A DNA stretch of 64,000 nt from Candidatus Aminicenantes bacterium JdFR-78. GTDB lineage: Bacteria > Acidobacteriota > Aminicenantia > JdFR-78. The first letter of the stretch is position 1; every line of letters begins with the position of its first letter. Made by a program: the position numbers and the translations under genes. Below the pieces are notes generated by a model. That model was not told where the DNA came from. It saw nothing but the letters and a program-made list of their open reading frames with translations, and searched no databases. Shown piece by piece: positions 47,602 through 64,000 of this stretch. Where the stretch lies: contig MTON01000027.1 in the NCBI GenBank assembly GCA_002010665.1, positions 22,780 to 86,779 on the forward strand, read 5' to 3'.

Positions 47602-49644
47602 ATGAGAAATAAAAGTTTTATCCTCACAGTAATTTTAAGTTTATTATTAATTTTACCTGCCTTTTCTGGTGAAAAGCATGCAATAACCTTTGATGATTTT
47701 ATTAAAATTAAAAGAATAGGTGATTCTCAACTGTCTCCTGATGGAAAATCAGTTGCTTTTGTAATAACAGAGATGAATAAAGAGGAGAATACAAGCAATA
47801 GTGATATCTGGCTTGCATCTATTGATGGAAAATTGCTTCGGAAGTTAACTTCTTCTCCAAAGGCGGATTACAGACCTCGATGGTCACCAGATGGCAAGAA
47901 AATCGCTTTTATATCCACACGCAGTGGTTCTCCGCAGATTTGGATGATTAATTTGAGAGGAGGTGAGGCATATCAAGTTACTGATGTTCCAACCGGAGTT
48001 TCAGGATTTATCTGGTCACCTGATGGTAAGTATCTGATTTATGCTTCAAAGGTCTATCCAGATTGTCCTGATGAAAAGTGCAATAAAGAGAGAGAAGAAA
48101 AGAAGAAAAAAAGTAAAGTAAAAGCGAAAATTTTTGATAGTTTGTTGTTCAGACACTGGGATGAATGGAGAGATGAGAAGAGAAGTCACCTGTTTTTGTA
48201 TTCAATAGATGAGAAAAAAGCAGTAGATTTAACCCCTGGTAATTATGATTGCCCTCCAATAGCTCTGGGAAGTGCTCATGATTACGATTTCTCTCCGGAT
48301 GAGAAGGAAGTATGCTTTGTGATGAATACAGATCCGGTGGTGGCAACCAGCACAAATAATGATTTATTTATTGTTTCTCTTGAGACAAAAGAAATTAAGA
48401 GGCTCACTGAAAATAAAGCTAACGATAATTCTCCTCATTATTCTCCTGATGGTAAATATATAGCCTATCGTGCTATGGAAAGACCTGGTTTTGAATCAGA
48501 TAAATATTCATTAATGATATATGATAGAGAAACCGGGAAGACAATTAATTTAACCGAGGATTTTGACCTTTCAATCGGAAATATTGTGTGGTCACCTGAC
48601 AGTAAATATATTTATTTCTCATGCCAGGAAAAAGCTCGTCGACCAATTTATCGGGTGTCCATAAAGAAAAAGAAAATTGAGAAAATTCTGGATGGAGTAA
48701 CAACCGGAAATTTCATGTTAACTCCTGATGGTAAGACCATTATTTTTGAGAGAGAGGCGATTAATTTACCTAAAGAGATATTTAAATATGATATTAAAAA
48801 GAAAAAAATAGAACAGATTACCAGAATAAATGAAGAGATTCTTTCAAAATTAGAGATGAATTCCCTCGAGGAATTCTGGTTCACTGGAGCAGATGGAGAT
48901 AAGGTCCATGGTCTTCTTCTTAAGCCTCCTTTCTTTGATCCTTCTAAGAAATATCCTTTAGTGATGCTAATACACGGAGGGCCTCAGGGAGCATGGGAAG
49001 ATGAATTTCACTATCGCTGGAACGCACAGATGTTTGCCTCCCCTGGATATGTGGTTGTAATGATAAATTTTCATGGAAGCACGGGTTACGGACAGGCTTT
49101 CACTGATAGTATTACAGGAGATTGGGGAGGAAAACCCTTTGAAGATTTAATGGCTGGATTAACATATGTCCTTGCAAATTACGATTTTATAGATCCGAAT
49201 TTAAAAGCTGCAGCTGGTGCGTCATATGGCGGATATATGATAAACTGGATAGAAGGTCATACGAATCGTTTTAAATGCTTGATTTCTCATGCAGGAGTTT
49301 TTGATTTAAGAAGCATGTATGGAGCAACAGAAGAATTGTGGTTCCCTGAATGGGAATTTAAAGGAACGCCATGGACAAATCCTGAAATGTATGAGAAATT
49401 TTCACCGAGCTATTATGTTCGGTATTTTAAGACTCCATGTCTTGTGATTCACGGTCAAAATGATTTCAGAGTTCCCGTCACTCAGGGTTTCCAGATGTTC
49501 ACCTCTCTTCAAAGGATGGGAGTTCCTTCAAAACTTGTTTATTTTCCTGATGAAACCCATTTCGTGCAAAAACCGCAGAATGCTGAGCTGTGGTGGAAAG
49601 TAGTTCATGAATGGCTGGCTAAATACTTAAAATCTGGAAAATAA
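47602..49644 (+). CDS. S9-family serine peptidase (acylaminoacyl-peptidase / prolyl oligopeptidase type) with N-terminal beta-propeller
   Basis: Signal peptide. Repeated 'SPDGK' propeller blades. C-terminal alpha/beta hydrolase with nucleophile elbow 'GASYGGYM', Asp and His downstream. Confidence 0.85.
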   Translation: MRNKSFILTVILSLLLILPAFSGEKHAITFDDFIKIKRIGDSQLSPDGKSVAFVITEMNKEENTSNSDIWLASIDGKLLRKLTSSPKADYRPRWSPDGKKIAFISTRSGSPQIWMINLRGGEAYQVTDVPTGVSGFIWSPDGKYLIYASKVYPDCPDEKCNKEREEKKKKSKVKAKIFDSLLFRHWDEWRDEKRSHLFLYSIDEKKAVDLTPGNYDCPPIALGSAHDYDFSPDEKEVCFVMNTDPVVATSTNNDLFIVSLETKEIKRLTENKANDNSPHYSPDGKYIAYRAMERPGFESDKYSLMIYDRETGKTINLTEDFDLSIGNIVWSPDSKYIYFSCQEKARRPIYRVSIKKKKIEKILDGVTTGNFMLTPDGKTIIFEREAINLPKEIFKYDIKKKKIEQITRINEEILSKLEMNSLEEFWFTGADGDKVHGLLLKPPFFDPSKKYPLVMLIHGGPQGAWEDEFHYRWNAQMFASPGYVVVMINFHGSTGYGQAFTDSITGDWGGKPFEDLMAGLTYVLANYDFIDPNLKAAAGASYGGYMINWIEGHTNRFKCLISHAGVFDLRSMYGATEELWFPEWEFKGTPWTNPEMYEKFSPSYYVRYFKTPCLVIHGQNDFRVPVTQGFQMFTSLQRMGVPSKLVYFPDETHFVQKPQNAELWWKVVHEWLAKYLKSGK

Positions 49645-49773
49645 TAATTTATTGAATTTATTGAGTTTGTTGAATTAACATTAGTAGAAAGTCAAAAGTC
49701 CTTAGTCAAAAGTCAACATTTTATAATTCATATTTTACAAGTAGAATAACGCTTTCCGATTTGTGAAAATTTT

Positions 49774-49802
49774 TTGACATCTTGTTTTAATCATAATATA
49801 TT
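49774..49802 (+). promoter_or_regulatory. Sigma70-like promoter TTGACA-17-TATATT for hicBA
   Basis: TTGACA 49774-49779, 17 nt, TATATT 49797-49802. SD 'AGCGAGGTGA' before the ATG at 49823. Direct repeat 'AGTCAAAAGTC' x2 about 90 nt upstream. Confidence 0.45.
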
Positions 49803-49822
49803 TTAGAAAGCGAGGTGATACT

Positions 49823-50026
49823 ATGAAGTTAAAAGTAATTATTCATGAAGCTGAAGAAGGGGGATATTGGGCTGAAGTGCCATCTATTCCTGGCTGTGCC
49901 ACTCAGGGTGAGACATTTGAAGAACTTCTTGCCAATATTTATGAAGCTGTAGAGGCATGTCTGTCCGTTGACATAAAAGATATAGAAATTACGGAAAAAG
50001 ATAGAGTTTTGGAGATTGTAGTGTGA
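49823..50026 (+). CDS. hicB: HicB-family antitoxin (UPF0150/DUF1902-like)
   Basis: 67 aa. '[31 protein letters not shown]' typical of the HicB N-domain. 4-nt overlap with hicA. Confidence 0.7.
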
Positions 50027-50229
50027 AAGCCATCTCTGGGAAAGAATTCGCTAAGCTACTCGAAAGGAAAGGCTGGGTATTAAAAAGAATAAAAGGAAGT
50101 CACCATATTTATATGAAGGAAGGAATTAATGTCCGAATTTCTGTTCCTATACACGGTAATAAGCCACTAAAGCTTGGTCTTCTTAAATACTTTATGAAAG
50201 TTGCTGGAATTGATGAAAGTGAATTGTGA
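50023..50229 (+). CDS. hicA: HicA-family mRNA interferase toxin
   Basis: 68 aa. 'KGSHHIY' and dsRBD-like fold signature of HicA/YcfA. Confidence 0.8.
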
Positions 50230-50291
50230 AATAAATTACATAAAAAATAGTTATCAATATTTTCATTTAAGGGAAAAACTGGATTAGAAAA

Positions 50292-51746
50292 ATGAATTTA
50301 AAAGCGGATTTTCCGGAGAAAGATTTATTTGTGAAGCTTTTTGGAGAGAATGTTTATGCAGTTGGGGGATATGTGCGGGATTTGCTCATGGGTATTCATT
50401 CAAAGGATGTGGATATTCTGATTACAAAACATACAGTTGACGAAATTGTTAATAAAATTTCAAAATACGGTCGGGTGGACCTTGTTGGAAAAAGTTTTGG
50501 AGTTATAAAATTTACAACAAAGGGTAGAACCTATGATGTTTCTTTACCCAGGACAGAGGTTCTTGATGAATCTCGGAAAAAAGACCATAAGAATTTCATT
50601 ATTTCGGCTGATCCGAATTTACCTATTGAAAAAGACCTTGAGAGACGAGATTTCAGATGTAACAGTATAGCACTTAGATTAATAGATGGAAAAATCATTG
50701 ATCCATTTAATGGTCAGAAAGATATTAAAGAAAAAATAATTCGGATAACAAATCCAAAAACTTTTCCTGACGATCCCTTGAGAGTCTTGAGAATTGCCAG
50801 ATTTGCATCAATTTTGAATTTTAGAGTTGATCCTGAGTTGTATTACATATCTCAACGAATTGATTTAAAGGGTCTCAGTGTGGAGAGAATTAATGAGGAA
50901 TTATTTAAAATCCTCCTTCTCTCGGATAGACCCTCAATAGGTTTGAAAGAGTTTTTCAAACTCGGGGTTTTATATCAATTGTTTCCAGAACTTTACAAAC
51001 TTACTCTGACTATTCAAGATTCAGTTTTTCATCCTGAAAAAGATGAGTTTGGTCACCATACTGTATGGCATCATACCTTGATTACAGTGGATCAGGCAAA
51101 GAGATTGTGTAAAAAATTTAATTTGAGCGAGGAAAAAAGTTTAGCATTATTATTAGCAGCCCTTTATCATGATGTAGGAAAAAGTGAAACTGCAAAATGG
51201 GAATATAAAAATGGAAGAATGGTTATTACAAATAATCGCCACGATGTCATAGGAGCAAAAATAACTGAAGAGGTTTTCAACAGATTTAAAATATATTCAT
51301 GGAATGGCTATGATTTGAGGAAAATGGTTTTAATTCTTGTAAGGACACATCACCGTTCAACTGACCTATGGCAGAACAGGCATAATGTGACTCGCAGAGC
51401 TTTTAACAGGCTTGCAGCAGATGTTGAAGGTGAAATCGAGCTTCTCATACTTCTGGATGCAGCTGATAGGGCAGGTAGATATGAGGAGTTAATAGATGAT
51501 TTAGATGAACAAGGAAAATGGCTTTTTAAAAAATTCGAGGAACTCAGAGTATCAAAGGAAACGATTAAACCTCTTGTAATGGGGAGGGATTTATTAAAAC
51601 TTGGTTTCTCACCCGGACCTAAACTCGGAAAGATATTGAAGAAGCTTTATGAAATGCAACTTGACAATGAATTTCAGACAAAAGAGGAAGGCATTAAACT
51701 AGCATCCAAAGTATCAAAAGAATTATTCGGGAAAGAAAAAGTATAA
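50292..51746 (+). CDS. cca: tRNA nucleotidyltransferase (CCA-adding enzyme) with HD domain
   Basis: Class II Pol-beta head 'AVGGYVRDLLMG...DVD', neck/body, C-terminal HD 'LYHDVGK'. Confidence 0.8.
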   Translation: MNLKADFPEKDLFVKLFGENVYAVGGYVRDLLMGIHSKDVDILITKHTVDEIVNKISKYGRVDLVGKSFGVIKFTTKGRTYDVSLPRTEVLDESRKKDHKNFIISADPNLPIEKDLERRDFRCNSIALRLIDGKIIDPFNGQKDIKEKIIRITNPKTFPDDPLRVLRIARFASILNFRVDPELYYISQRIDLKGLSVERINEELFKILLLSDRPSIGLKEFFKLGVLYQLFPELYKLTLTIQDSVFHPEKDEFGHHTVWHHTLITVDQAKRLCKKFNLSEEKSLALLLAALYHDVGKSETAKWEYKNGRMVITNNRHDVIGAKITEEVFNRFKIYSWNGYDLRKMVLILVRTHHRSTDLWQNRHNVTRRAFNRLAADVEGEIELLILLDAADRAGRYEELIDDLDEQGKWLFKKFEELRVSKETIKPLVMGRDLLKLGFSPGPKLGKILKKLYEMQLDNEFQTKEEGIKLASKVSKELFGKEKV

Positions 51747-51754
51747 GAATTCAA

Positions 51755-52729
51755 ATGAGAATTTTAGTTACTGGTGGAGCAGGGTATATAGGCTCCCATA
51801 CTGTAAAAGAACTTGAAAAACAGAATTACGAAGTAATTATCTTTGACAATCTTTCTACTGGAAGAAAAGAATTAGTCAAAGGTAAAAAGCTAATAATAGG
51901 AGATTTAAAAAATCTTGATGAAGTTAGGGAAGTTTTTAGGAAATATAAGTTTGATGCAGTTATGCATTTTGCTTCCTTGATTCAGGTGGGAGAATCCTAT
52001 AAAAATCCATTGAAATATTATAGAGAGAATATTTTAAATAGTTTGAATCTTCTTCAGACAATGGTAGAAGAAGGAGTGAATTATTTTATTTTTTCCTCAA
52101 GTGCAGCAGTTTACGGTATTCCTAAATTTACGCCAATTAGTGAAGATCATCCATTAAATCCAGTTAATCCATATGGAGAGACGAAATTTTTTATTGAAAA
52201 AATGTTACAGAATTTTGATAGAGCCTATGGATTAAAGTATGTTTCACTGAGGTATTTTAATGCTGCAGGTGCAGATCCTGACGGAGAATTAGGAGAGCTT
52301 CATGAGCCTGAGACTCATCTTATACCGAATATTCTGCTTTTTCTTCTTGGTAAAAAAGAGAGATTTGAAATTTATGGGAATGATTTTCCAACACCTGATG
52401 GCACAGCCATCAGGGATTATATTCATGTAACTGATTTAGCAAGAGCACATGTCCTAGCTCTAAAAAAACTTTTTAAGACTAAAAAAAGCGAGGTGTTCAA
52501 TTTAGGAGTGAAAAAAGGGCATTCTGTTCTGGAAGTTGTAAAAGAAGTGGAAAAAGTAACAGGGAAAAAAGTGGAGTATACTATCAAACCAAGAAGGGAA
52601 GGAGATGTTCCAATTCTGATTGCAAGCGAAGAGCGGGCAAGAAAAGAGCTAAACTGGAAACCTCAGTATTCTGATTTAAAGACCATAATACAAACTGCCT
52701 GGAACTGGCATAGAAAACAAGTTATTTGA
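51755..52729 (+). CDS. galE: UDP-glucose 4-epimerase
   Basis: 'VTGGAGYIGSH', 'YxxxK', about 324 aa, characteristic GalE C-terminus. Confidence 0.85.
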   Translation: MRILVTGGAGYIGSHTVKELEKQNYEVIIFDNLSTGRKELVKGKKLIIGDLKNLDEVREVFRKYKFDAVMHFASLIQVGESYKNPLKYYRENILNSLNLLQTMVEEGVNYFIFSSSAAVYGIPKFTPISEDHPLNPVNPYGETKFFIEKMLQNFDRAYGLKYVSLRYFNAAGADPDGELGELHEPETHLIPNILLFLLGKKERFEIYGNDFPTPDGTAIRDYIHVTDLARAHVLALKKLFKTKKSEVFNLGVKKGHSVLEVVKEVEKVTGKKVEYTIKPRREGDVPILIASEERARKELNWKPQYSDLKTIIQTAWNWHRKQVI

Positions 52730-52852
52730 CTTAAGATTTTACAAGTGTTATAAACTTTTTTGAATGTTGGAAATTTTTAACAGCATTTATTTTAAGAAGA
52801 CCATTCATAATTCACATTTTACATTTCACAGAATAATAGGAAAGGAGGGAGC

Positions 52853-55800
52853 ATGAAATTAAAAAGCATATTTGTTTTTATTCTGGCATTTATTTTATGT
52901 TATGGGATTGTTTATGCTCCTCAGGAAGCAAGAGTTCTTCGTTTTCCAGCAATTTATAAGGATCAAATAGTTTTTACCTATGCTGGAGATTTATACACTG
53001 TTTCAGCAAAGGGTGGAATAGCAAGAAAGCTTACAAGTCATGAAGGTTATGAAATGTTTGCTCGTTTTTCTCCTGATGGAAAGATGATTGCTTTCACAGC
53101 AGAATATGATGGAAATCGAGAAGTTTATGTGATGCCAAGCAAGGGAGGTATTCCAAAAAGAGTTACCTATACACCTGTTTTAAGGAGGGATGATGTTGCG
53201 GATAGAATGGGTCCAAACAATATTGTAATGGGATGGAAACATGACAACAAACACATTGTTTTCCGTTCACGAATGAGGGAATGGAATAGCTTTAATGGTC
53301 AACTTTATCTTGTCCCATGTGATGGTGGAACTCCTGTTCAGTTACCTCTACCAAGAGGAGGATTCTGTTCCTTTTCTCCGGATGATAAAAAGCTTGCTTA
53401 TAATCGTATATTTCGTGAATTCAGAACATGGAAAAGATATAGGGGCGGAATGGCGGATGATATATGGATTTATGATTTTGAAACTAAAAAAGTAACAAAT
53501 ATTACAAATAATCCAGCACAGGATATTATTCCAATGTGGAGTGGAGATAAAATTTACTTCCTTTCTGATAGAGACGAAAACAAGAGAATGAATTTATATG
53601 TATATGACCTGAAGACAAAACAGACTCGGAAACTTACAAATTTCACAGAATATGACATCAAATTCCCGTCTCTGGGTCCGGACGCAATAGTTTTTGAATA
53701 TGGTGGATACATTTACCGCTTTGACTTAAAAACAGAAAAAGTTTCCAAGGTTCCAATTTTTATTGCTGATGATATGGTTACTGGAAGGGATAAGATAATA
53801 AATGTAAAGGATTATATTACAACCTTTCATGTCTCTCCAGGAGGGAAAAGAGCACTTTTTGGTGCAAGAGGAGAGATATTTACAATTCCAATTAAATATG
53901 GAAATACCAGAAATTTAACAAATACCTCTGGTGTTCATGAAAGAAATCCCCGATGGTCACCTGATGGAAAATGGATTGCATTTATTTCAGATAAAAGCGG
54001 AACAGGGGAAATTTATATTATGCGACAGGATGGTTCAGGTAAACCAGAACAGCTTACCTTTAATGGAGATACATATAAATATGAAATTCTCTGGTCTCCG
54101 GATGGAAAAAAGATTATGTGGAGTGATAAAAAACTTAGATTGAATTATGTTGATGTGGAGACCAAAAAGGTTGTGCAAGTGGCAAAGGCTGATATTTGGG
54201 AAATTCGTCAATATTGCTGGTCTCCTGATAGTAAATGGATAGCATATGCAAAGCCAGAAGTTAAAGGCATGACAAAAATTTATTTATATAATCTGGATAC
54301 AAAGAAGACATATGAAGTGACAGAAGGGTGGTATTCCTCATATGCTCCTTGTTTCAGTTCTGATGGAAAATACCTCTTCTTTGTTTCTGATAGAGAATTT
54401 AATCCTGTTTATAGCAGGGTGGAGTGGAATTATGCCTATCTTGCAATGGCAAAAATTTATTTTGTGACATTGAGGCGGGATATAAAGTCTCCATTTGAAC
54501 CTAAGAGTGATGAGGTTGAGATAAAAGAAAAGGAGAAAAAATTGCCTGAAAGTAAATCCAAGAAAGGTAAAGAGAAAAAAGTAAAAGAGAAAAAGAAAGT
54601 AGTAGAGGTTAAGATTGACCCTGTTGGACTGAAAGACAGAATTATTGCACTTCCAATTGAAACCGCTAACTACTGGCATATCACATCAATTGGAGACAGG
54701 ATTTATTATATGAAAAGAAAAGATCTGGAAAGGAAGTCATATTTGATGATGTATGACCTGAAGGCGCAAAAAGAGACAAATCTTGGAAATATTGATAGAT
54801 ATGAAATTTCTCCTGATAAGAAAAAGATGATTATAAGGAAAGGGAAAGACTATGCAATAATAGATTTGCCCGTTTCTCCAATAAAAATAAAAGAGAAACT
54901 AGACCTTTCTCATATGGAGATGAAGCTTAATCGGAAGGAAGAGTGGAATCAGATTTTTAATGAGTGCTGGCGTCATATGAAATACTTCTTCTATGACCCA
55001 AACATGCATGGAGTGGATTGGGAAGCAATGAGACGCAAATACGAACCCCTGGCAAGAGCAGTTAATCATCGCGCAGATTTGACTTATGTGATAGGAGAGA
55101 TGATTGGAGAGTTAAATGTTGGTCATGCTTATGTGGGTGGAGGAGATGTGCCAAAAGTTAAAAGGATTAAAGTTGGTATGCTGGGTGCCCAGTTTGAGCG
55201 GGATCCAAAAACTGGATATTACAAAATTGTAAAAATTCTGAAAGGACAGAACTGGAGCAAGAGACTCAGGTCACCTTTAACTGAGGTTGGTGTTAATGTT
55301 AAAGAAGGGGAATATTTAATTGCAATTAATGGAAAGCCAACAAATAAGATGAAAGACATGTATGAGGCTCTGGTTAATACAGTAGGGAAGCAGGTTAAGC
55401 TAAAAGTAAATAGTAAACCGACGGAAAAAGGTGCAAGAGAGGTTGTGGTTGTTCCGATTGAGAGCGAACAGGACCTTTATTACTATAACTGGGTTCAGAA
55501 AAATATTGAAAAGGTTAATAAAGCGACAAATGGAAAAGCGGGTTATATTCATATTCCGGATATGGGAAGAAGAGGCCTCAATGAATTTGTGAAGTATTTT
55601 TATCCTCAGCTGAGAAAAAAGGCTTTAATTATAGATGTTCGTGGTAATGGAGGAGGAAATGTTTCTCCAATGATAATTGAGCGTTTGAGAAGAGAAATTG
55701 CAATGATTGGGATTGCAAGAAATACTGTGCCGAGCCCTGACCCAGAAGCTCTAATACTCGGTCCAAAGGTGTGTTTGATTGATGAATTTTCAGCCTCAGA

Positions 55801-56140
55801 TGGAGATATTTTCCCTTATAGATTTAAGAAATATAAACTTGGAAAGTTAATTGGAAAACGGACATGGGGAGGCGTTGTTGGTATCAGAGGCACTTTACCT
55901 CTTGTTGATGGTGGATATTTAATGAAACCTGAATTTGCTATTTATGATACAGAAGGGAAGAAGTGGATTATTGAGGGTCATGGTGTGGAACCTGATATCT
56001 ATGTGGATAATGACCCAGCGAAAGAGTATGCTGGAATAGATGAACAGTTGAATAAAGCTATTGAAGTTATTCTTGAAGAGCTGAAGACAAAAGAAAAAGA
56101 ATTACCTCCACCACCACCTTATCCAAAGAAAGATAAATGA
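52853..56140 (+). CDS. Tricorn-protease homolog (S41 family) with tandem beta-propellers and PDZ domain
   Basis: 1095 aa, signal peptide, repeated 'SPDGK' blades, PDZ. C-terminal S41 catalytic domain ('VRGNGGG', 'FSASDGD', 'EGHGVEPD'). Confidence 0.8.
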   Translation: MKLKSIFVFILAFILCYGIVYAPQEARVLRFPAIYKDQIVFTYAGDLYTVSAKGGIARKLTSHEGYEMFARFSPDGKMIAFTAEYDGNREVYVMPSKGGIPKRVTYTPVLRRDDVADRMGPNNIVMGWKHDNKHIVFRSRMREWNSFNGQLYLVPCDGGTPVQLPLPRGGFCSFSPDDKKLAYNRIFREFRTWKRYRGGMADDIWIYDFETKKVTNITNNPAQDIIPMWSGDKIYFLSDRDENKRMNLYVYDLKTKQTRKLTNFTEYDIKFPSLGPDAIVFEYGGYIYRFDLKTEKVSKVPIFIADDMVTGRDKIINVKDYITTFHVSPGGKRALFGARGEIFTIPIKYGNTRNLTNTSGVHERNPRWSPDGKWIAFISDKSGTGEIYIMRQDGSGKPEQLTFNGDTYKYEILWSPDGKKIMWSDKKLRLNYVDVETKKVVQVAKADIWEIRQYCWSPDSKWIAYAKPEVKGMTKIYLYNLDTKKTYEVTEGWYSSYAPCFSSDGKYLFFVSDREFNPVYSRVEWNYAYLAMAKIYFVTLRRDIKSPFEPKSDEVEIKEKEKKLPESKSKKGKEKKVKEKKKVVEVKIDPVGLKDRIIALPIETANYWHITSIGDRIYYMKRKDLERKSYLMMYDLKAQKETNLGNIDRYEISPDKKKMIIRKGKDYAIIDLPVSPIKIKEKLDLSHMEMKLNRKEEWNQIFNECWRHMKYFFYDPNMHGVDWEAMRRKYEPLARAVNHRADLTYVIGEMIGELNVGHAYVGGGDVPKVKRIKVGMLGAQFERDPKTGYYKIVKILKGQNWSKRLRSPLTEVGVNVKEGEYLIAINGKPTNKMKDMYEALVNTVGKQVKLKVNSKPTEKGAREVVVVPIESEQDLYYYNWVQKNIEKVNKATNGKAGYIHIPDMGRRGLNEFVKYFYPQLRKKALIIDVRGNGGGNVSPMIIERLRREIAMIGIARNTVPSPDPEALILGPKVCLIDEFSASDGDIFPYRFKKYKLGKLIGKRTWGGVVGIRGTLPLVDGGYLMKPEFAIYDTEGKKWIIEGHGVEPDIYVDNDPAKEYAGIDEQLNKAIEVILEELKTKEKELPPPPPYPKKDK

Positions 56141-56461: not shown

Positions 56462-57601
56462 TTAATATTTTATCTCATTCCAGTTTTCAATTTTTAATCT
56501 TTTAATCATTATATTTCCTGTTTCCTTGGAGCGAAGAAGAGAATAGATATAACCTCGCTTGATTACATGCGGATAGCAAGGTAACTTCGTATAATACAAG
56601 AACTTCCCTTTTGAACTGAAAATATCTATGTCCCATTCCTCTCTCTTATCAGATGGTGACTTAAATTTAATTACCCATATTCTTCCTTTCTCGTCAGTAA
56701 GTATATCAGTAAAAAATGGACAGTATTCAGGAATATACATCCTCTTTAATTTTTTGGCTTTCCTTGGAACAGGAATCGGATTTTCATCTTTTTTTATTTC
56801 AAAAATTAAATTACCTTCTTTATCAAGAACAAATAATCTATATTCATCTGACTTTGCATATATAATTTTATTTTCAAATGAAGCGAGAACTAATCTTAGA
56901 GCATATGGGCTCAAAACTCCTCCAAAAACTCCTCCACCTCCTTTGCCTTTTATTTTTATATTTCTCTCAATTAATTTATCTATTTCTTTTATCAGTTTGC
57001 CTTTAAAATCCAGCATAACAAGACAGTTGTATGCTCCGCTTTCCTCAAATTGAAGAACTGGAATAAAAATTCTCTGCTCAGATGTAATTACAAAGCGAAG
57101 ACCTAAATAAGGAGGGATTGAAAAATCAAAAGTCGAATAATCACAGGGAATTCTCTCTACAAAATCTCCATTTTTATTAAACTTCTCAATCTCTCTTCCA
57201 TCTTTAACATATATGTTATCTTCAGTGTCAATAAATATAGAAACTGGAAATTCAAACTCACCAGGTCCTTTCCCTCTTCTTCCAATTGTTTTAAGGTATT
57301 TTCCATTTTTATTAAATACTTGAACTCTACAATTTCCCCTATCAACTATATAGATGTTTCTCCTGCTATCAACCCCAATATCTGAAACCCGATAAAACAT
57401 ATAATTCTCATCTATTTCTGATTCCTTGATTGTTAAGTCTTCCTTTAATTTAAGTTTTAATTCACTACATTCAGGGTTAATCTCAGAACTACATATTTCT
57501 ATAAAAGCAAAAAACATAAAATAAAGAAGACATAACAAATAACCCTTTTTATTTTGTGTTCTCATCTGATAATTTTTTATAAAATAATTTTCGAATTTCA
57601 A
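56462..57601 (-). CDS. Secreted NHL-type beta-propeller protein (paralog family A, copy 1)
   Basis: Signal peptide. First blade is a canonical NHL repeat 'GRRGKGPGEFEFPVSIFIDTEDNIYVKD'. Paralogous to 57912-58999, 60322-61446 and 63693->64000. Confidence 0.55.
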   Translation of the reverse strand: MKFENYFIKNYQMRTQNKKGYLLCLLYFMFFAFIEICSSEINPECSELKLKLKEDLTIKESEIDENYMFYRVSDIGVDSRRNIYIVDRGNCRVQVFNKNGKYLKTIGRRGKGPGEFEFPVSIFIDTEDNIYVKDGREIEKFNKNGDFVERIPCDYSTFDFSIPPYLGLRFVITSEQRIFIPVLQFEESGAYNCLVMLDFKGKLIKEIDKLIERNIKIKGKGGGGVFGGVLSPYALRLVLASFENKIIYAKSDEYRLFVLDKEGNLIFEIKKDENPIPVPRKAKKLKRMYIPEYCPFFTDILTDEKGRIWVIKFKSPSDKREEWDIDIFSSKGKFLYYTKLPCYPHVIKRGYIYSLLRSKETGNIMIKRLKIENWNEIKY

Positions 57602-57602
57602 G

Positions 57603-57908
57603 CTATGTTTTAGTGTAGGGGCAGCATCTACTATAAGAAGCTACTGGCTCGTTATTAATAATGCACTGGCATAAAACGCATTCTCTTGAACCGCCATCAA
57701 TTCCACAAAAAACGTCCTCGCAATAACCAAATGTCTCACAAAAAATAATAAGAAATCCTTCTCTGCTTCGTTCGCAAATAAGGGAGGCTCGGCAGTGTTT
57801 TCTTTCTGCCGCATGAACAAATTTTACCACCATAAGTATTGCTAAAATTAGTGCTATCCCAATGCTTAAACCAATTAAAAGATGTTTGTTTTTTGATAAA
57901 CTTTTCAT
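57603..57908 (-). CDS. Small Cys-rich protein with N-terminal signal/anchor (101-aa class)
   Basis: N-terminal hydrophobic helix then 11 Cys in about 65 aa. SD 'AAGGGGA' 6 nt upstream. Stop lies 1 nt from the start of the downstream beta-propeller gene. Confidence 0.5.
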   Translation of the reverse strand: MKSLSKNKHLLIGLSIGIALILAILMVVKFVHAAERKHCRASLICERSREGFLIIFCETFGYCEDVFCGIDGGSRECVLCQCIINNEPVASYSRCCPYTKT

Positions 57909-57911
57909 TTT

Positions 57912-58999
57912 AATCCCCTTTTAAAGTTTTGGAATTTTAAACTTTATAAATTTTAATTCATATTTATCCTTTAAATGTCCATATTCAAGAACATATTTCC
58001 TATTTTTTCTATCTAAAGCAAAACCCCGGAGAATAAAAGGAACATTTTTTATAAATAATTTAATAAATTTATTTTTATAATTTCCATTTAAATCAAAAAT
58101 ATATACTTTTCTCCTTATTCCACATAATAAATTATTTTCTATAACTTCTATTCCAAAAATGTATCTAATAGCATATATTCCATCCTCACTTATTACATTC
58201 TGAGGGGTTTCAAATGGAAGTTTTGATTCTTTTATAAATTTATCAATTTCTAATACACCCCTGACTTTTAATTTTCTTAAGTTTCTAAAAAAGACTAACT
58301 CACCTTTTGAAGTATATTTATATATTTAAATATAACTGGATAAAAAACGAACGCACCGTATATATTGTCTTTGTTATCTATTATTAATTTTGCTTTATTA
58401 AAAAAACAATATGCTTCTATATCTTTTGTAGGAATTATTTTTCCAAAGGTCTTTGTTAGTTTACCGTTTTCATTAAAACCAGAAATCAATTTTTTATTCA
58501 AGAATTTGCTTTTATTTTTACTATCAAGAAAAATCATTTTTTTAGAACCAACTACAATTGAACTCACCCCATATAATTCCTCTTGAATGGAAATTTTCTT
58601 TTTAAATTTTCCGCTTAAATCATATACTTTAATACTGTTATCACCATTTATTATGTAAATTAATCCTTTTTTAATAAAAAAGGCTTGAGGCTTATAAAGT
58701 GATTGCTCATCTTGACCTATCTGTCCAATTTGTCCAATTATTTTACCTTTCTCATTTAACTTTAAAATTCTGTGATTCTCTCTATCCAAGGCATAGATAA
58801 TACCGTCATTGTAAGCAAAAAGTGTTTGCGTCAAATAAAAATTAAGATTCATTTTATCAAAATCTTCTGTCTCTGTGTCAAAAAGCACCTTTGCATTAAC
58901 TTTGATTTCTTTCTCAAAGGCTGGAGAGGAGATTAAAAGGTGGAACGATATTATTAAAAGATAAAATAGAATTAAAAGTAATTTAAATATTCTCTTCAT
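57912..58999 (-). pseudogene. Frameshifted paralog of the NHL beta-propeller family
   Basis: ORF 58295-58999 (234 aa) stops at about two-thirds of paralog length. The remaining C-terminal third ('...DGIYAIRYIFGIEVIENNLLCGIRRKVYIFDLNGN...') continues in a different frame to a TAA at 57921-57923 with no ATG. Shift lies near an A6 run at about 58285-58291. Confidence 0.5.
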
Positions 59000-59849
59000 T
59001 TACTCTTCATAAGCAATTTTAGTATCGCATTAAATATATACTCTTCGCTCATTCCAATTTTCTCAACGAAAATTATTTTTTTATTTTTTATTAATACGGT
59101 AAAAGGATCATTCTTTAAAAAATCATCAGTAATATATTTTTGCTCATCTGGTAATAAATTGAAATTGGGGCATTAAATATATCTCAAAAGGTATTTTTAT
59201 ATATCCTTTAATTTCCTTTACATCATTACTGTTAAATGGATCAAGAAAAGTAATCAACACCCTGCTTTTAATCTTTTCTTTTTTCAATCTGTCCCGTAGC
59301 TTAATCAAGGTATTAATTCTTTTCCCTGTCTTGCACAAGCTGCAAAAAGATGAAAAAATAGTTAAAATTATATTATCTCCTCTTGAAATATTTCTTAGGT
59401 AAATTTTTTTTTCTTCCTCACATCGTAAAGAATTAAATCAGGAACTTCTTTCCCTTTAATAAATATCGTCTGCTCAGACGGTTTTTTAAATATATAATTA
59501 ATTTTCCCAAGGATACTCTTTTCCACCAATTGCCTCATCTCTTCTTCACTGATTAAACTTTTTGAATAAAATTCAATTTTCCATTTTTAAAATCTTTGTC
59601 TTTATATCGCTTAAATAATACTTCTGCATAAACTAATTTGAATTTGTCAGATATGTATAGGGGGTCAAAAAATAGAATAAAAAGATTTTTCACTTTTTCT
59701 TCACATAAAACAAATAAGTTTCCATTAATATCCTCAGCGTAAAAGTCCGGAGCTCTGTCTCCATAAGAAAATGCTTTTTTCTCCACTCCCACCAAGAAAG
59801 ACCAGAGGAAAATTGTTAAAATCATTGCTGAAATCAGCAATGCACTCAA
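58996..59849 (-). pseudogene. Disrupted TlpA-like thioredoxin-fold gene (at least two frameshifts)
   Basis: Three frames each match successive parts of the intact copy 61931-62497: N-terminal anchor plus 'APDFYAEDINGN' (frame of 59553-59849), CxxC 'FCSLCKTG...' (frame of 59144-59338), C-terminus '...KIGMSEEYIFNAILKLL' (to 58996). T9 homopolymer at 59404-59412. Confidence 0.45.
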
Positions 59850-59877
59850 TACGTTTATTGACTTCTTAAATCTCGTT

Positions 59878-60300
59878 ATCCCTTTGCACTAAAAAATTTA
59901 TTTATCAAATATCATAAAGTCAATTAATTTTATTCGTAAATTTTCCGATTTGATATCTTGCTCTATATTCGGAAGGAGTGACACCTTCCATTTCTTTAAA
60001 ATCTTTATAGAAATTCTGAACGAATTTATATCCAACTCTATATGAAATCTCTTTTATACTCAATGAATCACCTTCTAAAAGCTTCTTTGCTTTTTCAATT
60101 TTCCTTCGCTTTAAATAAGCTTTAAAAGTCATTCCAATTTCTTTTTTAAAAAGCTCGCATAAACGAGAACGACCAAGACAACAGTATTTTGTAATAGTTT
60201 TTAGACTTATCTTTTTATCTAAATTCTTTTCTATAAACTTAAGAGCTTTTTTGACTCTTAAATCCATTTTTCATAAAATTTAGGACTAAAAAGAGGAAAA
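59878..60300. repeat. About 420-bp segmental repeat (copy 2) carrying the AraC gene and its flanks
   Basis: Near-identical at nucleotide level to 62484-62950, including the 'CCCTTTGCACTAAAAAATTTATTTATCAAA' 3' flank and 'ACTAAAAAGAGG..AAACTT' 5' flank. Confidence 0.7.
59920..60267 (-). CDS. MarA/SoxS-sized AraC-family HTH regulator (copy 2)
   Basis: 115 aa consisting only of the dual-HTH AraC DNA-binding domain. Nearly identical to 62532-62897. Confidence 0.75.
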   Translation of the reverse strand: MDLRVKKALKFIEKNLDKKISLKTITKYCCLGRSRLCELFKKEIGMTFKAYLKRRKIEKAKKLLEGDSLSIKEISYRVGYKFVQNFYKDFKEMEGVTPSEYRARYQIGKFTNKIN

Positions 60301-60321
60301 ACTTAAACTAATTATTATAAA

Positions 60322-61446
60322 TTAATCTTTAATTTTTAAAGAATATACTGCAAAACTTGGAGTTACTTCATCAATGCAAAATGTATAAATATTATTATTT
60401 TCATCAATATCCATTATCGTTTCTGGGCCAAATTTTATATCCTTCTTTATTAAAGTCCCATCTAAAGAAAAAATGTCCAGATAATTTCTCGTCTTTTTAA
60501 TTCCCTTTTCTCTATAAGTCTCGGATAATTGAACTACTACATGGTTTTCTTTTGTAAAATGAACTCCTGCAATTACAATTAATTTTTCAATAGAATCCAT
60601 GATTCTCTGAATTTCTGCAACACTTTTAATTTTTTTTACGCTTAATTCGACTAGTTTTTTAGGAAATTTATAACCTGGGATTTTTCTTCCAAATTTTCTT
60701 ATCACTTGTCCATTTGTATTCAGAATATAAATTATATAAGGATTCGAGGGTTCAAAATGTGCAAATGCAATTAGATTATTTTTAACATCTATACTCCCCA
60801 TATAAGGCGTATGCAAACTATCCTTTCTTGGTTTTGGCCTATCCGGGAGAACTTCCTCAAAAAATGATTTAATGTATTTTCCAGTTCTATCATAAACATG
60901 AATATGATATTTTGACATAAGTTGTGGAGGGAAATAATAAATTACAATATTTCCATTTATGTCAAAATCCATACTTCGAGGATATTTCCAAGGCATGAGT
61001 TTTATAGATTTAATAAAATTCAAAGAATTATCAAAAATGCTTATTCTTCTGTTTCTAATTTCAGCTACCCAGATATTTCCTTTCTCATCAATTGCAAAAT
61101 GAGAAGGAGAATCAAGCTCTCCAGGTCCTTGTCCTTTTCCTCCTGCTTCTTTTATAAATTTTCCATCCTTTGAGAATTTCTTAATTGTATGTCCTTTAAA
61201 ATCAAGAACAAAGATATTACCATCTCTATCAGCTTTAATATCAGTTATCAGGAAAAAAAGCTCTTCTTTCTTTTCTTCACTTCCGATTTTGAATTTTTTT
61301 TCAATAATTACTTCTTTACCTAAAATTCCATTTGTTATAATAATTAAGCTTAGAAAAACCACAAAGATCTTCCTCATTCTTTCTCTCATTTTTTCATCCC
61401 CTGTTTGATATTTATCTATAATTACTATTGAGCTATCTCTATGCAT
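60322..61446 (-). CDS. Secreted NHL-type beta-propeller protein (paralog family A, copy 3)
   Basis: NHL blade 'GGKGQGPGELDSPSHFAIDEKGNIWVAE'. Probable true start at the internal 'MRERMRKIFVVFLSLIIITNG' signal peptide (about 61389). Confidence 0.6.
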   Translation of the reverse strand: MHRDSSIVIIDKYQTGDEKMRERMRKIFVVFLSLIIITNGILGKEVIIEKKFKIGSEEKKEELFFLITDIKADRDGNIFVLDFKGHTIKKFSKDGKFIKEAGGKGQGPGELDSPSHFAIDEKGNIWVAEIRNRRISIFDNSLNFIKSIKLMPWKYPRSMDFDINGNIVIYYFPPQLMSKYHIHVYDRTGKYIKSFFEEVLPDRPKPRKDSLHTPYMGSIDVKNNLIAFAHFEPSNPYIIYILNTNGQVIRKFGRKIPGYKFPKKLVELSVKKIKSVAEIQRIMDSIEKLIVIAGVHFTKENHVVVQLSETYREKGIKKTRNYLDIFSLDGTLIKKDIKFGPETIMDIDENNNIYTFCIDEVTPSFAVYSLKIKD

Positions 61447-61646
61447 TTTTCGTAAGAAATTCTACATCCTGTTGTGCATTCATGAAATAAACCAAAAGGA
61501 ATATAGGCAACACACATTAAAACGCAAGCCTCATATAAATCCTCGCATTCTTCTTCTGTTATTGCTAAAACCGGTTTTTGTTTAGTAAGAAATAAGTTTA
61601 AAATTAAAATGAAGGAAATAATAATAATCAATAATTTTTTTACCAT
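61425..61646 (-). CDS. Small secreted Cys-rich peptide precursor (73-aa class, copy b)
   Basis: Signal peptide with 'PVLA|IT' cleavage-like site. Mature about 45 aa with C-x6-C-x3-C ... C-x3-C-x6-C spacing. Confidence 0.5.
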   Translation of the reverse strand: MVKKLLIIIISFILILNLFLTKQKPVLAITEEECEDLYEACVLMCVAYIPFGLFHECTTGCRISYEKCIEIAQ

Positions 61647-61686
61647 CTCTTACCTCCTGCTTTATTCTAATTTATTAATTAAGCGG

Positions 61687-61908
61687 TTACTCCTCAGCCA
61701 TACTCATGCAAAGTTCAAAGAAAATTCTACATCCTTCTTGACATCCATAATTCGAACCACAACTTTCTTGACATGCAGAAAAAATTTCAAGGCAATCTTT
61801 TTCTGTTACTTTTGCAATCATTGATTTTTGAAAAATAGTTAAGAAACCAAAAACAAGGAACATTAAAAGAGCACTCGTTAATAAGAATACTTGAATTTTT
61901 TTAGACAT
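61687..61908 (-). CDS. Small secreted Cys-rich peptide precursor (73-aa class, copy a)
   Basis: Signal peptide 'SMIA|KV'. Same mirrored six-Cys spacing (CLEIFSAC QESC ... CQEGC RIFFELC). Confidence 0.5.
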   Translation of the reverse strand: MSKKIQVFLLTSALLMFLVFGFLTIFQKSMIAKVTEKDCLEIFSACQESCGSNYGCQEGCRIFFELCMSMAEE

Positions 61909-61930
61909 CCTTACCCCCTGAATTTTATTT

Positions 61931-62497
61931 TTAAAAAATTAATTCTCTTAATTCATAATAATCACTCCCATCTAATTCACCTGTTTTTATCCATTCAACT
62001 TTGCCTTTCCCATTAATTAAAATAGTCTGAGAAAATTTCGAAATTCTGTAATCTCGAATAAATTTTTCTCTATTTTTAGGAGTATAAACTGGAATGTCCA
62101 CTTTTAAATATGATTTTAAATTTCGTGCATCTTTCAGTTCCCTTAAACTGATTAATAGTACCCTTGCCTTATCTTTAAGTTGGTAACTTAACCTTCTCCA
62201 AAATATTAAATTTTTATCACAAGGAATACATGAATTTGTTTGAATGAAAAGCAATGTTTTCTTATTATTATTGAAATCAATAAATTCTATTTTGCCATCT
62301 AAATTAACTGCTTCTATAGGAGGTGCATAATCGTCTGGGATTAGATGAGGAATTTCTTTTCTTAATGCTATTATATGAGCTTTAAGCCTTCTATTTTGAA
62401 TTATTAATATCACTATTTCTAGTAAAATCAACAAAATTAATATTCCTATTAAAAAATTAACTAATTTTTTATATTTCATTGTATTATCCCTTTGCAC
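61931..62497 (-). CDS. Membrane-anchored TlpA/ResA-like thiol:disulfide oxidoreductase (thioredoxin fold, CxxC)
   Basis: N-terminal TM, 'APPIEAVNLDGK' start of the thioredoxin domain, active site 'SCIPCDKN'. Likely start is the ATG at 62479 (SD 'AAAGGGA') rather than the GTG at 62497. Confidence 0.7.
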   Translation of the reverse strand: MQRDNTMKYKKLVNFLIGILILLILLEIVILIIQNRRLKAHIIALRKEIPHLIPDDYAPPIEAVNLDGKIEFIDFNNNKKTLLFIQTNSCIPCDKNLIFWRRLSYQLKDKARVLLISLRELKDARNLKSYLKVDIPVYTPKNREKFIRDYRISKFSQTILINGKGKVEWIKTGELDGSDYYELRELIF

Positions 62498-62950
62498 TAA
62501 AAAATTTATTTATCAAAAATCCTAAAGTCAACTAATTTTTATTCGTAAAATTTCCGATTTTGTTAGTAAATTTTCCGATTTGATATCTTGCTCTGTATTT
62601 GGAAGGAGTGACACCTTCCATTTCTTTAAAATCTTTATAGAAATTCTGAACGAATTTATATCCAACTCTATATGAAATCTCTTTTATGCTCAGTGAATCG
62701 TCTTTTAAAAGCTTCTTTGCTTTTTCAATTTTCCTGCGCTTTAAATAAGCTTTAAAAGTCATTCCAATTTCTTTTTTAAAAAGCTCGCATAAACGAGAAC
62801 GACCAAGACAACAGTATTTTGCAATAATTTTTAGACTTATCTTTTTATCTAAATTCTTCTCTATGAACTTAAGAGCTTTTTTGACTCTTAAATCCATTTT
62901 TCATAAATTTCCCTTTCCATTAATTTAGTACTAAAAAGAGGGAGAAACTT
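62484..62950. repeat. About 470-bp segmental repeat (copy 1) carrying the AraC gene and its flanks
   Basis: See copy 2. Contains an internal 21-nt tandem duplication ('GTAAAATTTCCGATTTTGTTA'). Confidence 0.7.
62532..62897 (-). CDS. MarA/SoxS-sized AraC-family HTH regulator (copy 1)
   Basis: 121 aa AraC dual-HTH domain. C-terminus carries a 21-nt tandem duplication relative to copy 2 ('IGKFTNKIGNFTNKN' vs 'IGKFTNKIN'). Confidence 0.75.
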   Translation of the reverse strand: MDLRVKKALKFIEKNLDKKISLKIIAKYCCLGRSRLCELFKKEIGMTFKAYLKRRKIEKAKKLLKDDSLSIKEISYRVGYKFVQNFYKDFKEMEGVTPSKYRARYQIGKFTNKIGNFTNKN

Positions 62951-63390
62951 GAAAATTTTTGAAATTTTTATAAGTTAAGTAAAGCCAATAAGTTAAATAG
63001 ATAGTTTTCTATCCACGAATCAAAAGATTTTTTTTATATTTTGAGGAAATCATAAAAAAATTCGATAAAAAAAATGACAAATTTCTCATTAATATGAAAA
63101 GATGTTTAAATAGTAGAAAGATGCTTTCTTTAAGTTAAACTGTTCGGAATAACAATTTGTCCAAAAATTTTGTGAAAGAAAAGATAGACAGGCTACTTTT
63201 TATTACCTCTCTTTTTAGTCTCTCCTCTATTTTTATCATTTCGAATCAGATTCTATATGAATTTTTATAATTATGACGATCGGTAAAGTAACCTATTCTT
63301 TTTTATTTACCATCTCATTCCTTTCTAATTTAAACTTGTTTCCCCCTACCGATTTCTTTTTACCCAGAATATTATATCTTAGGAATCAAA

Positions 63391-63696
63391 TTAACGACAG
63401 CAAGTTCTGCGATATTCGTCACAATACCAATAAAACCATTCCCAAGGCCCTGTACATTCTATTAACCATTCAGAACGACAAATGCAATAACCATCACACC
63501 AGGCTTCCTCTAATGTGTAGTTTTTACAATTTCTTTTTCCTCCACAATCTTCAACACAATGTTCACGAGCAAGACTTTTACATAATATTGTGGGTGTGCA
63601 AGATTTTGGTTCATCTGCAAATAGATATTTAATCAAAATTAAATCAAAACATAAAATTAAACCTAAAATAATTAAAAGAAGAAGATTTTTCTTCAT
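63391..63696 (-). CDS. Small Cys-rich protein with N-terminal signal/anchor (101-aa class)
   Basis: Hydrophobic N-terminus then 12-13 Cys in about 70 aa. ATG overlaps the TGA of the upstream beta-propeller gene (ATGA). Confidence 0.5.
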   Translation of the reverse strand: MKKNLLLLIILGLILCFDLILIKYLFADEPKSCTPTILCKSLAREHCVEDCGGKRNCKNYTLEEAWCDGYCICRSEWLIECTGPWEWFYWYCDEYRRTCCR

Positions 63697-64000
63697 TTTT
63701 GACTCCTTAAATTAAATTTTTTAAAAATCTTATTTTGGTCAACTTGTTGCTTTTTCTTTTTATAGATTATTATTTTTGTATTACTTAAAACTGCGTAGAT
63801 ATTTTTAATGTTATTAATACAATAAATTCCATCAGTAGTATTAGGAACTTCTATACAAGAAACAAAACTTCCATTTTTTCTAAATATATATATTTCTTCT
63901 TTTTTGATAGAACTATTAAAATAAAAAAGATATAAATTTTCGTTATTATCCGATAAAAATTCATGAAATGCTACCCTATATCTCCCTTTGGATAATGATT
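63693..64000 (-). CDS. C-terminal part of a fourth NHL beta-propeller paralog (5' end beyond window)
   Basis: Open frame from the window edge to TGA at 63693-63695. '...YIFRKNGSFVSCIEVPNTTDGIYCINNIKNIYAVLSNTKIIIYKKK' resembles the C-termini of the other paralogs. Confidence 0.4.
   Translation of the reverse strand, partial: SLSKGRYRVAFHEFLSDNNENLYLFYFNSSIKKEEIYIFRKNGSFVSCIEVPNTTDGIYCINNIKNIYAVLSNTKIIIYKKKKQQVDQNKIFKKFNLRSQK

Follow-up and report, generated by a model that had tools for sequence, protein, structure and literature searches.

Two tandem six-cysteine peptide genes in a redoxin–propeller operon

We analyzed a 64,000-nucleotide (nt) stretch of contig MTON01000027.1 from Candidatus Aminicenantes bacterium JdFR-78, hereafter called the window, with a focus on two small adjacent genes that we designate pepA and pepB. 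The original prediction, made from the sequence alone, placed two tandem 73-amino acid (aa) secreted peptides with a mirrored six-cysteine (Cys) pattern at positions 61425–61908. Both open reading frames (ORFs) were found there on the minus strand, with Sec-type N-termini. As read from the ORFs and their translations, pepA (61908..61687) and pepB (61646..61425) each encode a 73-aa precursor (MSKKIQ...MAEE, MSKKIQVFLLTSALLMFLVFGFLTIFQKSMIAKVTEKDCLEIFSACQESCGSNYGCQEGCRIFFELCMSMAEE, and MVKKLL...IAQ, MVKKLLIIIISFILILNLFLTKQKPVLAITEEECEDLYEACVLMCVAYIPFGLFHECTTGCRISYEKCIEIAQ, respectively). The mirrored pattern C-x6-C-x3-C...C-x3-C-x6-C is exact in both, with the spacing C-x6-C-x3-C-x5-C-x3-C-x6-C in the pepA module (61708–61794, minus strand) and C-x6-C-x3-C-x11-C-x3-C-x6-C in the pepB module (61443–61547, minus strand). 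The Cys halves of the two peptides are the same and mirrored, and the difference between them is confined to the length of the central loop, x5 in pepA and x11 in pepB; the latter is hydrophobic and contains VAYIPFGLF. Each whole precursor has exactly six Cys residues, an amino acid that accounts for 0.78% of residues in the long ORFs of the window. The two peptides are paralogues (33% identity, E 7e-10), and their database entries, NLB65_01270 and NLB65_01275 of Candidatus Aminicenantes bacterium AC-335-B20, are annotated as hypothetical.

Both N-termini have a KK n-region, a hydrophobic core of 16–22 residues and small residues at −1 and −3, features suggesting that pepA and pepB carry Sec-type signal peptides that are cleaved. 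The candidate cleavage sites read from the translations fall between MIA and K in pepA and between VLA and I in pepB. The predicted signal peptides are encoded by 61908..61813 and 61646..61563, leaving mature parts of 41 aa (isoelectric point (pI) 4.3) for pepA and 45 aa (pI 4.1) for pepB. The initial estimate of about 45 aa for both mature regions was therefore correct for pepB and too long for pepA. Lipoprotein status was rejected for both peptides, as neither has a lipobox Cys.

pepA and pepB belong to an operon of five co-directional genes separated by gaps of 22–54 nt, with no predicted terminator between them. The first gene (62532..62897, minus strand) encodes a single-domain, 121-aa AraC/MarA-like helix-turn-helix (HTH) regulator that matches Pfam HTH_18 (E 2e-23) and HTH_AraC (E 9e-16), consists only of the DNA-binding domain and has NCBIfam matches that include MarA, SoxS and RamA. 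The CxxC oxidoreductase that had been noticed upstream of the peptide genes proved to be a TlpA/ResA/StoA-like redoxin (61931..62497, minus strand) whose gene lies 22 nt upstream of pepA and whose CxxC motif is CIPC (62219–62230). The longest ORF for this protein is 188 aa, with a probable start at 62479; the NCBI call is a 182-aa product. As read from the translation, an N-terminal hydrophobic helix would anchor the redoxin in the membrane. Its matches to Pfam AhpC-TSA, Thioredoxin_8 and Redoxin (E 4e-5 to 3e-4) were below gathering scores, and those to NCBIfam ResA (E 5e-8) and StoA (E 9e-6) were below curated cut-offs; against the PDB it matched StoA (3erw, E 4e-5) and ResA (E 3e-4).

The last gene (60322..61389, minus strand) encodes a 355-aa exported, six-bladed NHL/DUF5128 beta-propeller (Pfam DUF5128 E 1.5e-10, NHL E 2.6e-6). 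Its PDB matches were the NHL domains of TRIM71, TRIM2 and TRIM3 (E about 1e-31 over blades 1–2), the peptidyl-alpha-hydroxyglycine lyase PAL (3fvz, E 5e-5) and a Bacteroides exported protein (4raa, E 8e-4). The peptide genes had also been thought to overlap the propeller start, which turned out to be an artefact of the longest ORF, starting at 61446. An AGGGGA Shine-Dalgarno site precedes an internal ATG at 61389, NCBI calls the 355-aa product from it, and the orthologous propeller ORF in a related locus (L001) starts after the pepB stop codon; we therefore place a gap of about 35 nt, and no overlap, between pepB and the propeller gene. Processing of the peptides by the propeller in the manner of PAL was considered and rejected, since the match is weak and covers NHL blades only, and neither peptide has a terminal Gly. 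A resemblance to the NVEALA/BF3164-like system of Bacteroidota was likewise rejected, as no model matched; a literature search on DUF5128, DUF4934, NVEALA and PF17170 found nothing relevant.

Evidence that pepA and pepB are genes

Several lines of evidence bear on whether pepA and pepB are translated. Strong Shine-Dalgarno sites are present directly ahead of the pepA ATG (GGGGGTAAGG) and ahead of the pepB ATG (AGGAGGTAAGAG). When each gene was compared with its relative in a sister lineage of 84% nucleotide identity (L001–L003), the ratio of non-synonymous to synonymous substitution rates (dN/dS) was about 0.11 for both, and the part of L001 corresponding to mature pepA differed by four synonymous and zero non-synonymous changes. 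The order redoxin-pepA-pepB-propeller was found in three diverged lineages, namely the window, L001–L003 and L004. In L004, the redoxin gene is represented by its end, and it is accompanied by genes resembling pepA (P0006, 73 aa, 54% identity to mature pepA) and pepB and by a gene for a propeller. Because the tandem pair is present in diverged lineages, it must be older than these lineages and both copies have been retained.

We also scanned for the six-Cys pattern in all six frames of other DNA. It did not occur elsewhere in the window, nor in about 0.9 Mb from 80 unrelated NHL loci, so that none of these 80 NHL proteins has a six-Cys module nearby. The control loci, mainly from Acidobacteriota, came from a genome-collection scan with the propeller alignment, which had caught the generic NHL blade motif. 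A metagenome scan with the propeller returned the L001 contig again and one match with 31% identity to the window propeller (L098). The pepA/pepB cassette is thus very rare, and a chance origin of its pattern is excluded.

The contention that pepA and pepB are not genes, being chance ORFs in AT-rich intergenic DNA, would draw on their short length, their lack of a database family and the competing ORFs on the opposite strand. It is refuted by the strong Shine-Dalgarno sites, the low dN/dS values, the paralogy, the synteny kept in three lineages, the distant homologues described below and the absence of the pattern from control DNA, and we give it practically no credence. From these comparisons we conclude that pepA and pepB are, by every sequence-based indication, real genes under purifying selection. 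Thus homologues exist, keep the Cys spacing and show conservation at the coding level, which is what the original prediction had proposed to look for.

The six-cysteine module defines a small, divergent family

Word-index searches with each peptide recovered, apart from the query, a single relative of about 87% identity, and an exhaustive HMMER profile search of 1.84 billion representative proteins was needed to reveal a family. The orthologues are P0004 and P0006 for pepA and P0002, together with the pepB-like gene in L004, for pepB. Beyond the near-orthologues, the profile search gave five proteins, P0006 to P0010, with E values of 6e-7 to 8e-4, and a second profile search added five further proteins of the P0008 type. 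Distant members include P0008 (76 aa, cationic, pI 9.3), P0010 (70 aa) and P0007, an exported 231-aa protein of a marine bacterium (TARA contig) with three tandem copies of the module. Another is P0009, a protein of the fungus Venturia effusa (QDS70372.1, E 5e-4) with a C-terminal module at residues about 129–180 and an x5 loop, for which homology, transfer and convergence are all conceivable origins. A pattern scan of the fetched loci uncovered modules that the profile searches had missed. One is in the gene adjoining P0007, which holds at least one more copy; the tandem copies in P0007 and this adjacent gene (together L005 409–1465; L099 8001–8696 and downstream) indicate that the module acts as a repeatable domain. 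Another, complete module (CTENHQSCLQGCGSPGQQPQCERGCRVLYNKC) belongs to a 92-aa ORF that also encodes a signal peptide and is located 4 kb from P0008 (L006 12106–12384, minus strand). This ORF was not called as a gene in its source assembly, and family members are probably under-called in public annotations.

In total we collected 26 unique modules, each with exactly six Cys residues and none extra, and with loops of 5–17 residues. An aromatic residue lies four positions into C-x6-C in 24 of the 26 first halves and in every second half, giving the consensus C-x3-[YF]-x2-C-x3-C-(x5-17)-C-x3-C-x3-[YF]-x2-C. All short family members have signal peptides, and some members are strongly cationic, unlike the acidic pepA and pepB. 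In the pepB-like gene of L004 (364–594), TGG (Trp) replaces the fifth Cys, leaving five (GCISGWDFSYLHC). The gene is known from one metagenome contig of 1.2 kb; it may be a true variant or a copy in decay, or the Trp codon may stem from a sequencing error.

Neither Pfam nor NCBIfam contained a family matching pepA or pepB, and none of the relatives scored above threshold. A profile search against all PDB sequences gave no significant match, and a Foldseek search of the PDB gave no match at E below 7 for the 45-residue hairpin. A literature search for the Cys motif yielded no description in bacteria; the CX6CX3C matches were plant LBD zinc-finger-like domains and connexin loops. As judged from these searches, the pepA/pepB family is unnamed, sparsely distributed and divergent.

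Predicted fold and relation to known helical hairpins

AlphaFold2 was run on the mature peptides with a 12-sequence alignment. It returned the antiparallel helix-loop-helix that had been anticipated from the Cys spacing, with a mean predicted local distance difference test (pLDDT) score of 97.0 for pepB (helices 3–23 and 26–44) and 94.2 for pepA (helices 4–18 and 22–38). On the strength of these models, we assign the helix-loop-helix hairpin as the predicted fold of both peptides with high confidence. The Cys triplets are symmetric about the turn in both models; in pepB, the pairs C6/C40, C13/C33 and C17/C29 share residue 23, beside the turn, as their midpoint. The three Cys residues and the conserved aromatic residue would form one stripe per helix (i, i+4, i+7, i+11, mirrored on helix 2), and the hairpin interface would then be a four-rung ladder consisting of C1–C6, the aromatic pair, C2–C5 and C3–C4. 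The unusual 6/3 spacing would arise because the aromatic pair fills a rung inside each x6 gap.

Profile matches in the PDB that were below threshold comprised Jug r 2, luffin P1, BWI-2c, vicilin-buried peptides, neurotoxin B-IV and Tim13, all of which are disulfide-stapled helical hairpins. The closest free-standing structural analogues are the plant alpha-hairpinins, which share with the pepA and pepB models a helix-loop-helix of about 35–50 residues. The inner four Cys residues of the module have the CX3C-Xn-CX3C spacing that in alpha-hairpinins carries ladder disulfides C1–C4 and C2–C3. However, alpha-hairpinins (vicilin-buried peptides, Jug r 2, luffin P1, BWI-2c, VhTI) have two rungs rather than three, lack the outer C-x6 rung and the aromatic pair, and are cut from plant seed-storage precursors rather than from bacterial Sec precursors. 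The sequence matches to alpha-hairpinins were not significant (E 0.03–0.35; Pfam Vicilin_N E 0.2, for one relative only), so common descent is unsupported. pepA and pepB resemble alpha-hairpinins with a third rung, and they are not members of that group.

The nemertean neurotoxin B-IV (PDB 1VIB) is a helical hairpin of about 55 residues with four disulfides and helices at 13–26 and 33–49 (PMC6410017). It is a secreted, stable toxin scaffold held together by multiple disulfides, as predicted for pepA and pepB, but it is an animal protein, is cationic, has one of its disulfides more than the three rungs proposed here and gave an insignificant sequence match (E 0.61). Its Cys spacing may also contain a mirrored x6/x3 element. 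The twin-CX3C proteins (small Tims) and twin-CX9C proteins (CHCH, Cox17) also are antiparallel hairpins with a ladder of Cys residues on the same face, and they are oxidised after translocation by the Mia40/Erv1 relay, in parallel to the redoxin and MauE discussed below. They differ in having two rungs with equal spacing (3 or 9) instead of three pairs with mirrored x6 and x3 spacing, in being eukaryotic intermembrane-space proteins with no cleaved Sec signal, and in lacking any sequence relationship; pepA and pepB had no Pfam CHCH or Tim matches.

Disulfide-stapled helical hairpins, which are valued as hyper-stable scaffolds in the form of plant alpha-hairpinins, animal toxins and mitochondrial CHCH proteins, are thus already known. 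To our knowledge, a Sec-exported family of bacteria that combines three rungs with mirrored 6/3 spacing has not been reported before (Pfam, NCBIfam, the PDB and full-text literature were searched), and it is this predicted bacterial three-rung alpha-hairpin family that is new. If the prediction is correct, the module would provide a compact (about 41 aa), triple-stapled bacterial scaffold with a tolerant loop of 5–17 residues, useful for peptide engineering; the rarity of the family makes its immediate impact moderate.

A MauE gene adjoins the operon in a sister lineage

In the sister lineage, the redoxin-pepA-pepB-propeller operon is directly preceded by two additional genes (L001 3–725; also L003 101–802), the first for an 83-aa exported Cys-rich peptide and the second for a MauE protein (PF07291 E 1e-24, DoxX E 2e-8) with the active-site motif NCGCF, that is, CGC followed by Phe. 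The regulator gene occupies the equivalent position in the window. MauE proteins substitute for DsbB in Escherichia coli, depend on a CXC site that is usually CGC followed by Phe, and have been proposed to work via a thioredoxin-fold partner such as DsbA or MauD (bioRxiv 10.64898/2026.03.05.709764). The presence of MauE beside the redoxin in the sister lineage tips the balance toward oxidative folding of the adjacent Cys-rich peptides.

The arrangement in L001 recalls the methylamine dehydrogenase system (MauE/MauD), in which a small disulfide-rich exported subunit, a propeller, a thioredoxin-fold CxxC protein and MauE are co-encoded. In that system, however, the propeller of the heavy subunit is seven-bladed and not of the NHL type, unlike the six-bladed NHL propeller here, and the small subunit MauA has 12 Cys residues, a tryptophan tryptophylquinone cofactor and a fold different from that of pepA and pepB. 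The redoxin did not match the MauD model, and no other mau genes were present.

A proposed role as disulfide-stapled hairpins

The explanation that we consider the most probable, though well short of assured, is that pepA and pepB are stapled, Sec-exported hairpins that are oxidised by the redoxin, with the help of MauE where present, and that act as partners of their cognate propeller under the control of a MarA-like switch. According to this proposal, the cassette would be switched on by its own MarA-like activator, and Sec export with signal-peptide cleavage would yield the mature forms of 41 residues (pepA) and 45 residues (pepB). Once exported, the peptides would have their three Cys rungs converted to disulfides, and the resulting stapled hairpin would be highly stable while leaving its surface and loop free to vary. 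Oxidation would be carried out by the co-transcribed, membrane-anchored CIPC redoxin in a DsbA- or MauD-like role, which the adjacent MauE, a DsbB-like oxidase, would assist in the sister lineage. Outside the cytoplasm, the peptides would be stable binding partners of the NHL propeller, whether as ligand, subunit or inhibitor; a stable propeller partner is our best guess for their function.

A number of observations weigh against this proposal. We strongly infer three disulfides with ladder connectivity from the sequences and models, that is, from indirect evidence; all three rungs were feasible in an ideal-helix model (Cβ–Cβ 3.9 Å at an axis distance of 8.1 Å), a model that also fitted control patterns and so is non-discriminating. 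The Trp that replaces C5 in the L004 gene would leave C2 unpaired. Redoxins of the TlpA/ResA type classically act as reductants, the motif CIPC does not reveal which way the reaction runs, such that the role of oxidant is one that we infer, and no gene for MauE, DsbB or VKOR was found in the 64-kb window. The family is tiny, the E-values of its distant members are marginal, the fungal P0009 module may be convergent, and the conservation of Cys in profile matches is partly circular, as the profile rewards those columns. Independent support for a real, mobile domain comes from the presence of signal peptides, the placement of the aromatic residues, the tandem copies and the modules found by pattern alone. 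Finally, the distant members P0007, P0008/P0011 and P0010 stand alone, with no adjoining redoxin or propeller gene, which indicates that the propeller partnership is lineage-specific. The module is therefore a general extracytoplasmic scaffold that was recruited by the Aminicenantes lineage into the propeller cassette.

The question of redox direction also bears on a different function, in which the Cys residues would be kept reduced by the redoxin and, as in metal-thiolate proteins, would bind soft metal ions such as Cu(I), Zn and Cd, or hold a cluster, between the helices. In a variant of this idea, pepA and pepB might together form a bundle like that of copper storage proteins (Csp), which has four helices and a Cys-lined core. 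Redoxins of the TlpA/ResA/StoA type usually act as reductants, as TlpA does for ScoI and CoxB, and the Aminicenantes are commonly considered anaerobic. Both mature peptides are acidic and rich in Cys, the i, i+4, i+7, i+11 stripes are like those lining Csp bundles, the paralogues are always retained as a pair, and a variant with five Cys residues exists. However, the monomer models are two-helix hairpins, and neither Csp/DUF326 nor any other metal-binding family gave a Pfam match (pepA and pepB were searched at E up to 0.1 and the relatives at E up to 1). The peptides have no CxxC, CxC or His motifs, and their aromatic residues are conserved, unlike in metallothioneins. Moreover, the Cys count is always exactly six across the 26 modules, some family members are strongly cationic, the signal peptides are Sec-type rather than Tat-type, and MauE adjoins the redoxin in the sister lineage. 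Taken together, we regard metal binding as unlikely.

Should the stapled-hairpin proposal be correct, the operon would supply natural candidate substrates for a TlpA-like redoxin and the MauE pathway in an uncultured, probably anaerobic phylum. It would also provide a first functional handle on DUF5128-type NHL propellers, which are systematically paired here with small Cys-rich exported proteins.

Neighbouring cassettes and related loci

The pepA/pepB operon is the second of three adjacent cassettes (window 56462–64000, minus strand; L094 1–9554), whose common theme is a regulator of the MarA type with a TlpA-like redoxin, at least one small exported protein rich in Cys and a DUF5128/NHL propeller. 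In every cassette, an exported Cys-rich small protein is paired with a DUF5128 propeller. Unit 1, which extends partly past the window end, comprises a redoxin-like gene without CxxC, a propeller gene that runs off the window end and a gene for a 101-aa exported Cys-rich protein (63391..63696, minus strand) with 12 Cys residues after the signal peptide and one more within it; the ATG of this gene has a 4-nt overlap with the stop codon of the propeller gene before it. Unit 3 (56462..60267, minus strand) consists of a MarA-like regulator gene (60267..59920) that is 96% identical to the one in the pepA/pepB operon, a fragmented redoxin-like gene without CxxC (59849..59144, in pieces of 98, 47 and 64 aa), a propeller fragment (58999..58295), a gene for a 101-aa exported protein with 10 Cys residues (57908..57603) and a DUF5128 propeller gene (57601..56462), all on the minus strand. 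Two of the three redoxin genes, those of units 1 and 3, are thus degenerate. Neither of the two 101-aa proteins matched anything in Pfam, NCBIfam or the PDB. They bear no relation to the hairpin family and resemble one another only around the end of the signal peptide and the first two Cys residues (E 8e-4). A further unit in L001 contains a redoxin with the motif CWSC, a 71-aa Cys-rich peptide and two propellers. No MauE gene was found in L094.

Such an array might also be read as encoding a two-peptide, disulfide-stabilised toxin resembling a bacteriocin, in which pepA and pepB would be the active pair, the redoxin the folding catalyst and the propeller the immunity protein; divergent cassettes would then be diversifying toxin-immunity modules. 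The tandem pair retained in three lineages, the three adjacent and partly decayed cassettes with unrelated Cys-rich peptides that each have their own propeller, and the hydrophobic VAYIPFGLF loop of pepB would all fit. Bacteriocin loci can include dedicated oxidoreductases, such as BdbA/BdbB for sublancin and PedC for pediocin, and thuricin CD is a two-peptide system whose two tandem genes each give a helical hairpin in which three Cys residues form three cross-links in a ladder. The thuricin CD links, however, are thioethers from Cys-S to C-alpha made by radical S-adenosylmethionine (SAM) enzymes, with acceptor residues other than Cys. No radical SAM enzyme or other maturase for ribosomally made peptides that are modified after translation (RiPPs) was present in or near the pepA/pepB cassette, where the neighbours are the regulator, the redoxin and the propeller. 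In addition, no ABC or C39 exporter and no outer-membrane route was seen in the cassette, the signal peptides are Sec-type rather than double-glycine leaders, the peptides are strongly acidic (pI 4.1–4.3), unlike most membrane-active bacteriocins, and the dN/dS of 0.11 on orthologues reflects purifying, not diversifying, selection. A bacteriocin-like role is therefore an improbable one in our judgment.

Broader in scope, and tentative, is the idea that the locus is an array of a modular system, unrecognised until now, in which each unit would combine one or two exported, disulfide-rich mini-proteins with a cognate periplasmic NHL/DUF5128 propeller, a dedicated oxidative-folding module consisting of a TlpA-like redoxin and, in some cases, MauE, and a MarA-like switch of its own. 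The fold of the mini-proteins would vary freely, from the triple-rung alpha-hairpins here to the unrelated proteins with 10–12 Cys residues in the adjacent units and a Kunitz domain at a distant locus. On this view, pepA and pepB would form a heterodimer, and the units would be ligand-receptor or effector-immunity pairs that diversify together; we think of this as a possibility that is less probable than not by a clear measure. If it were true, pepA and pepB would be the first natural dedicated substrates assignable to the proposed MauE pathway.

In L098 (4081–5303), an 84-aa exported protein with a Kunitz/BPTI domain (PF00014, E 9e-13) is encoded 20 nt upstream of the 315-aa NHL propeller gene recovered in the metagenome scan, a further case of a small disulfide-rich protein beside an NHL propeller. 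As far as we know, Kunitz domains are uncommon in bacteria. The occurrence of a Kunitz protein in the same position before an NHL propeller at this distant locus raises the idea that pepA and pepB are disulfide-locked protease inhibitors or modulators like VhTI and BWI-2c, which would control exported peptidases or protect the propeller. The closest fold analogues do include trypsin-inhibitor hairpinins such as BWI-2c, and genes for tricorn, S9 and two M16 peptidases lie in the window just upstream of the cassettes. However, no sequence similarity to inhibitor loops was found, loop lengths range over 5–17 residues and no P1 residue is conserved, the peptidase genes nearby lie on the opposite strand or belong to separate units, and the Kunitz case is a single anecdote. 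Inhibition of proteases is accordingly a very unlikely function for the hairpins, which we continue to view as probable partners of the propeller.

Two copies of the regulator gene lie 2.6 kb apart (window 59876–60226 and 62484–62856) with 95–96% identity, which extends over 56 nt downstream and thus into the first part of the redoxin gene; the remaining cassette sequence is highly diverged. This pattern suggests that duplication or gene conversion recently affected the regulatory module alone. Every contig that carries the locus breaks off shortly after unit 1, suggesting that a repeat interrupted the assembly there.

Near the cassettes, a cluster of genes for exported or large peptidases occupies window positions 44500–56140. 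It consists of two M16 peptidases (44500–47440, minus strand), an S9 prolyl-oligopeptidase with PD40 propeller repeats (47602–49644, plus strand) and a 1095-aa homologue of the tricorn protease (52853–56140, plus strand).

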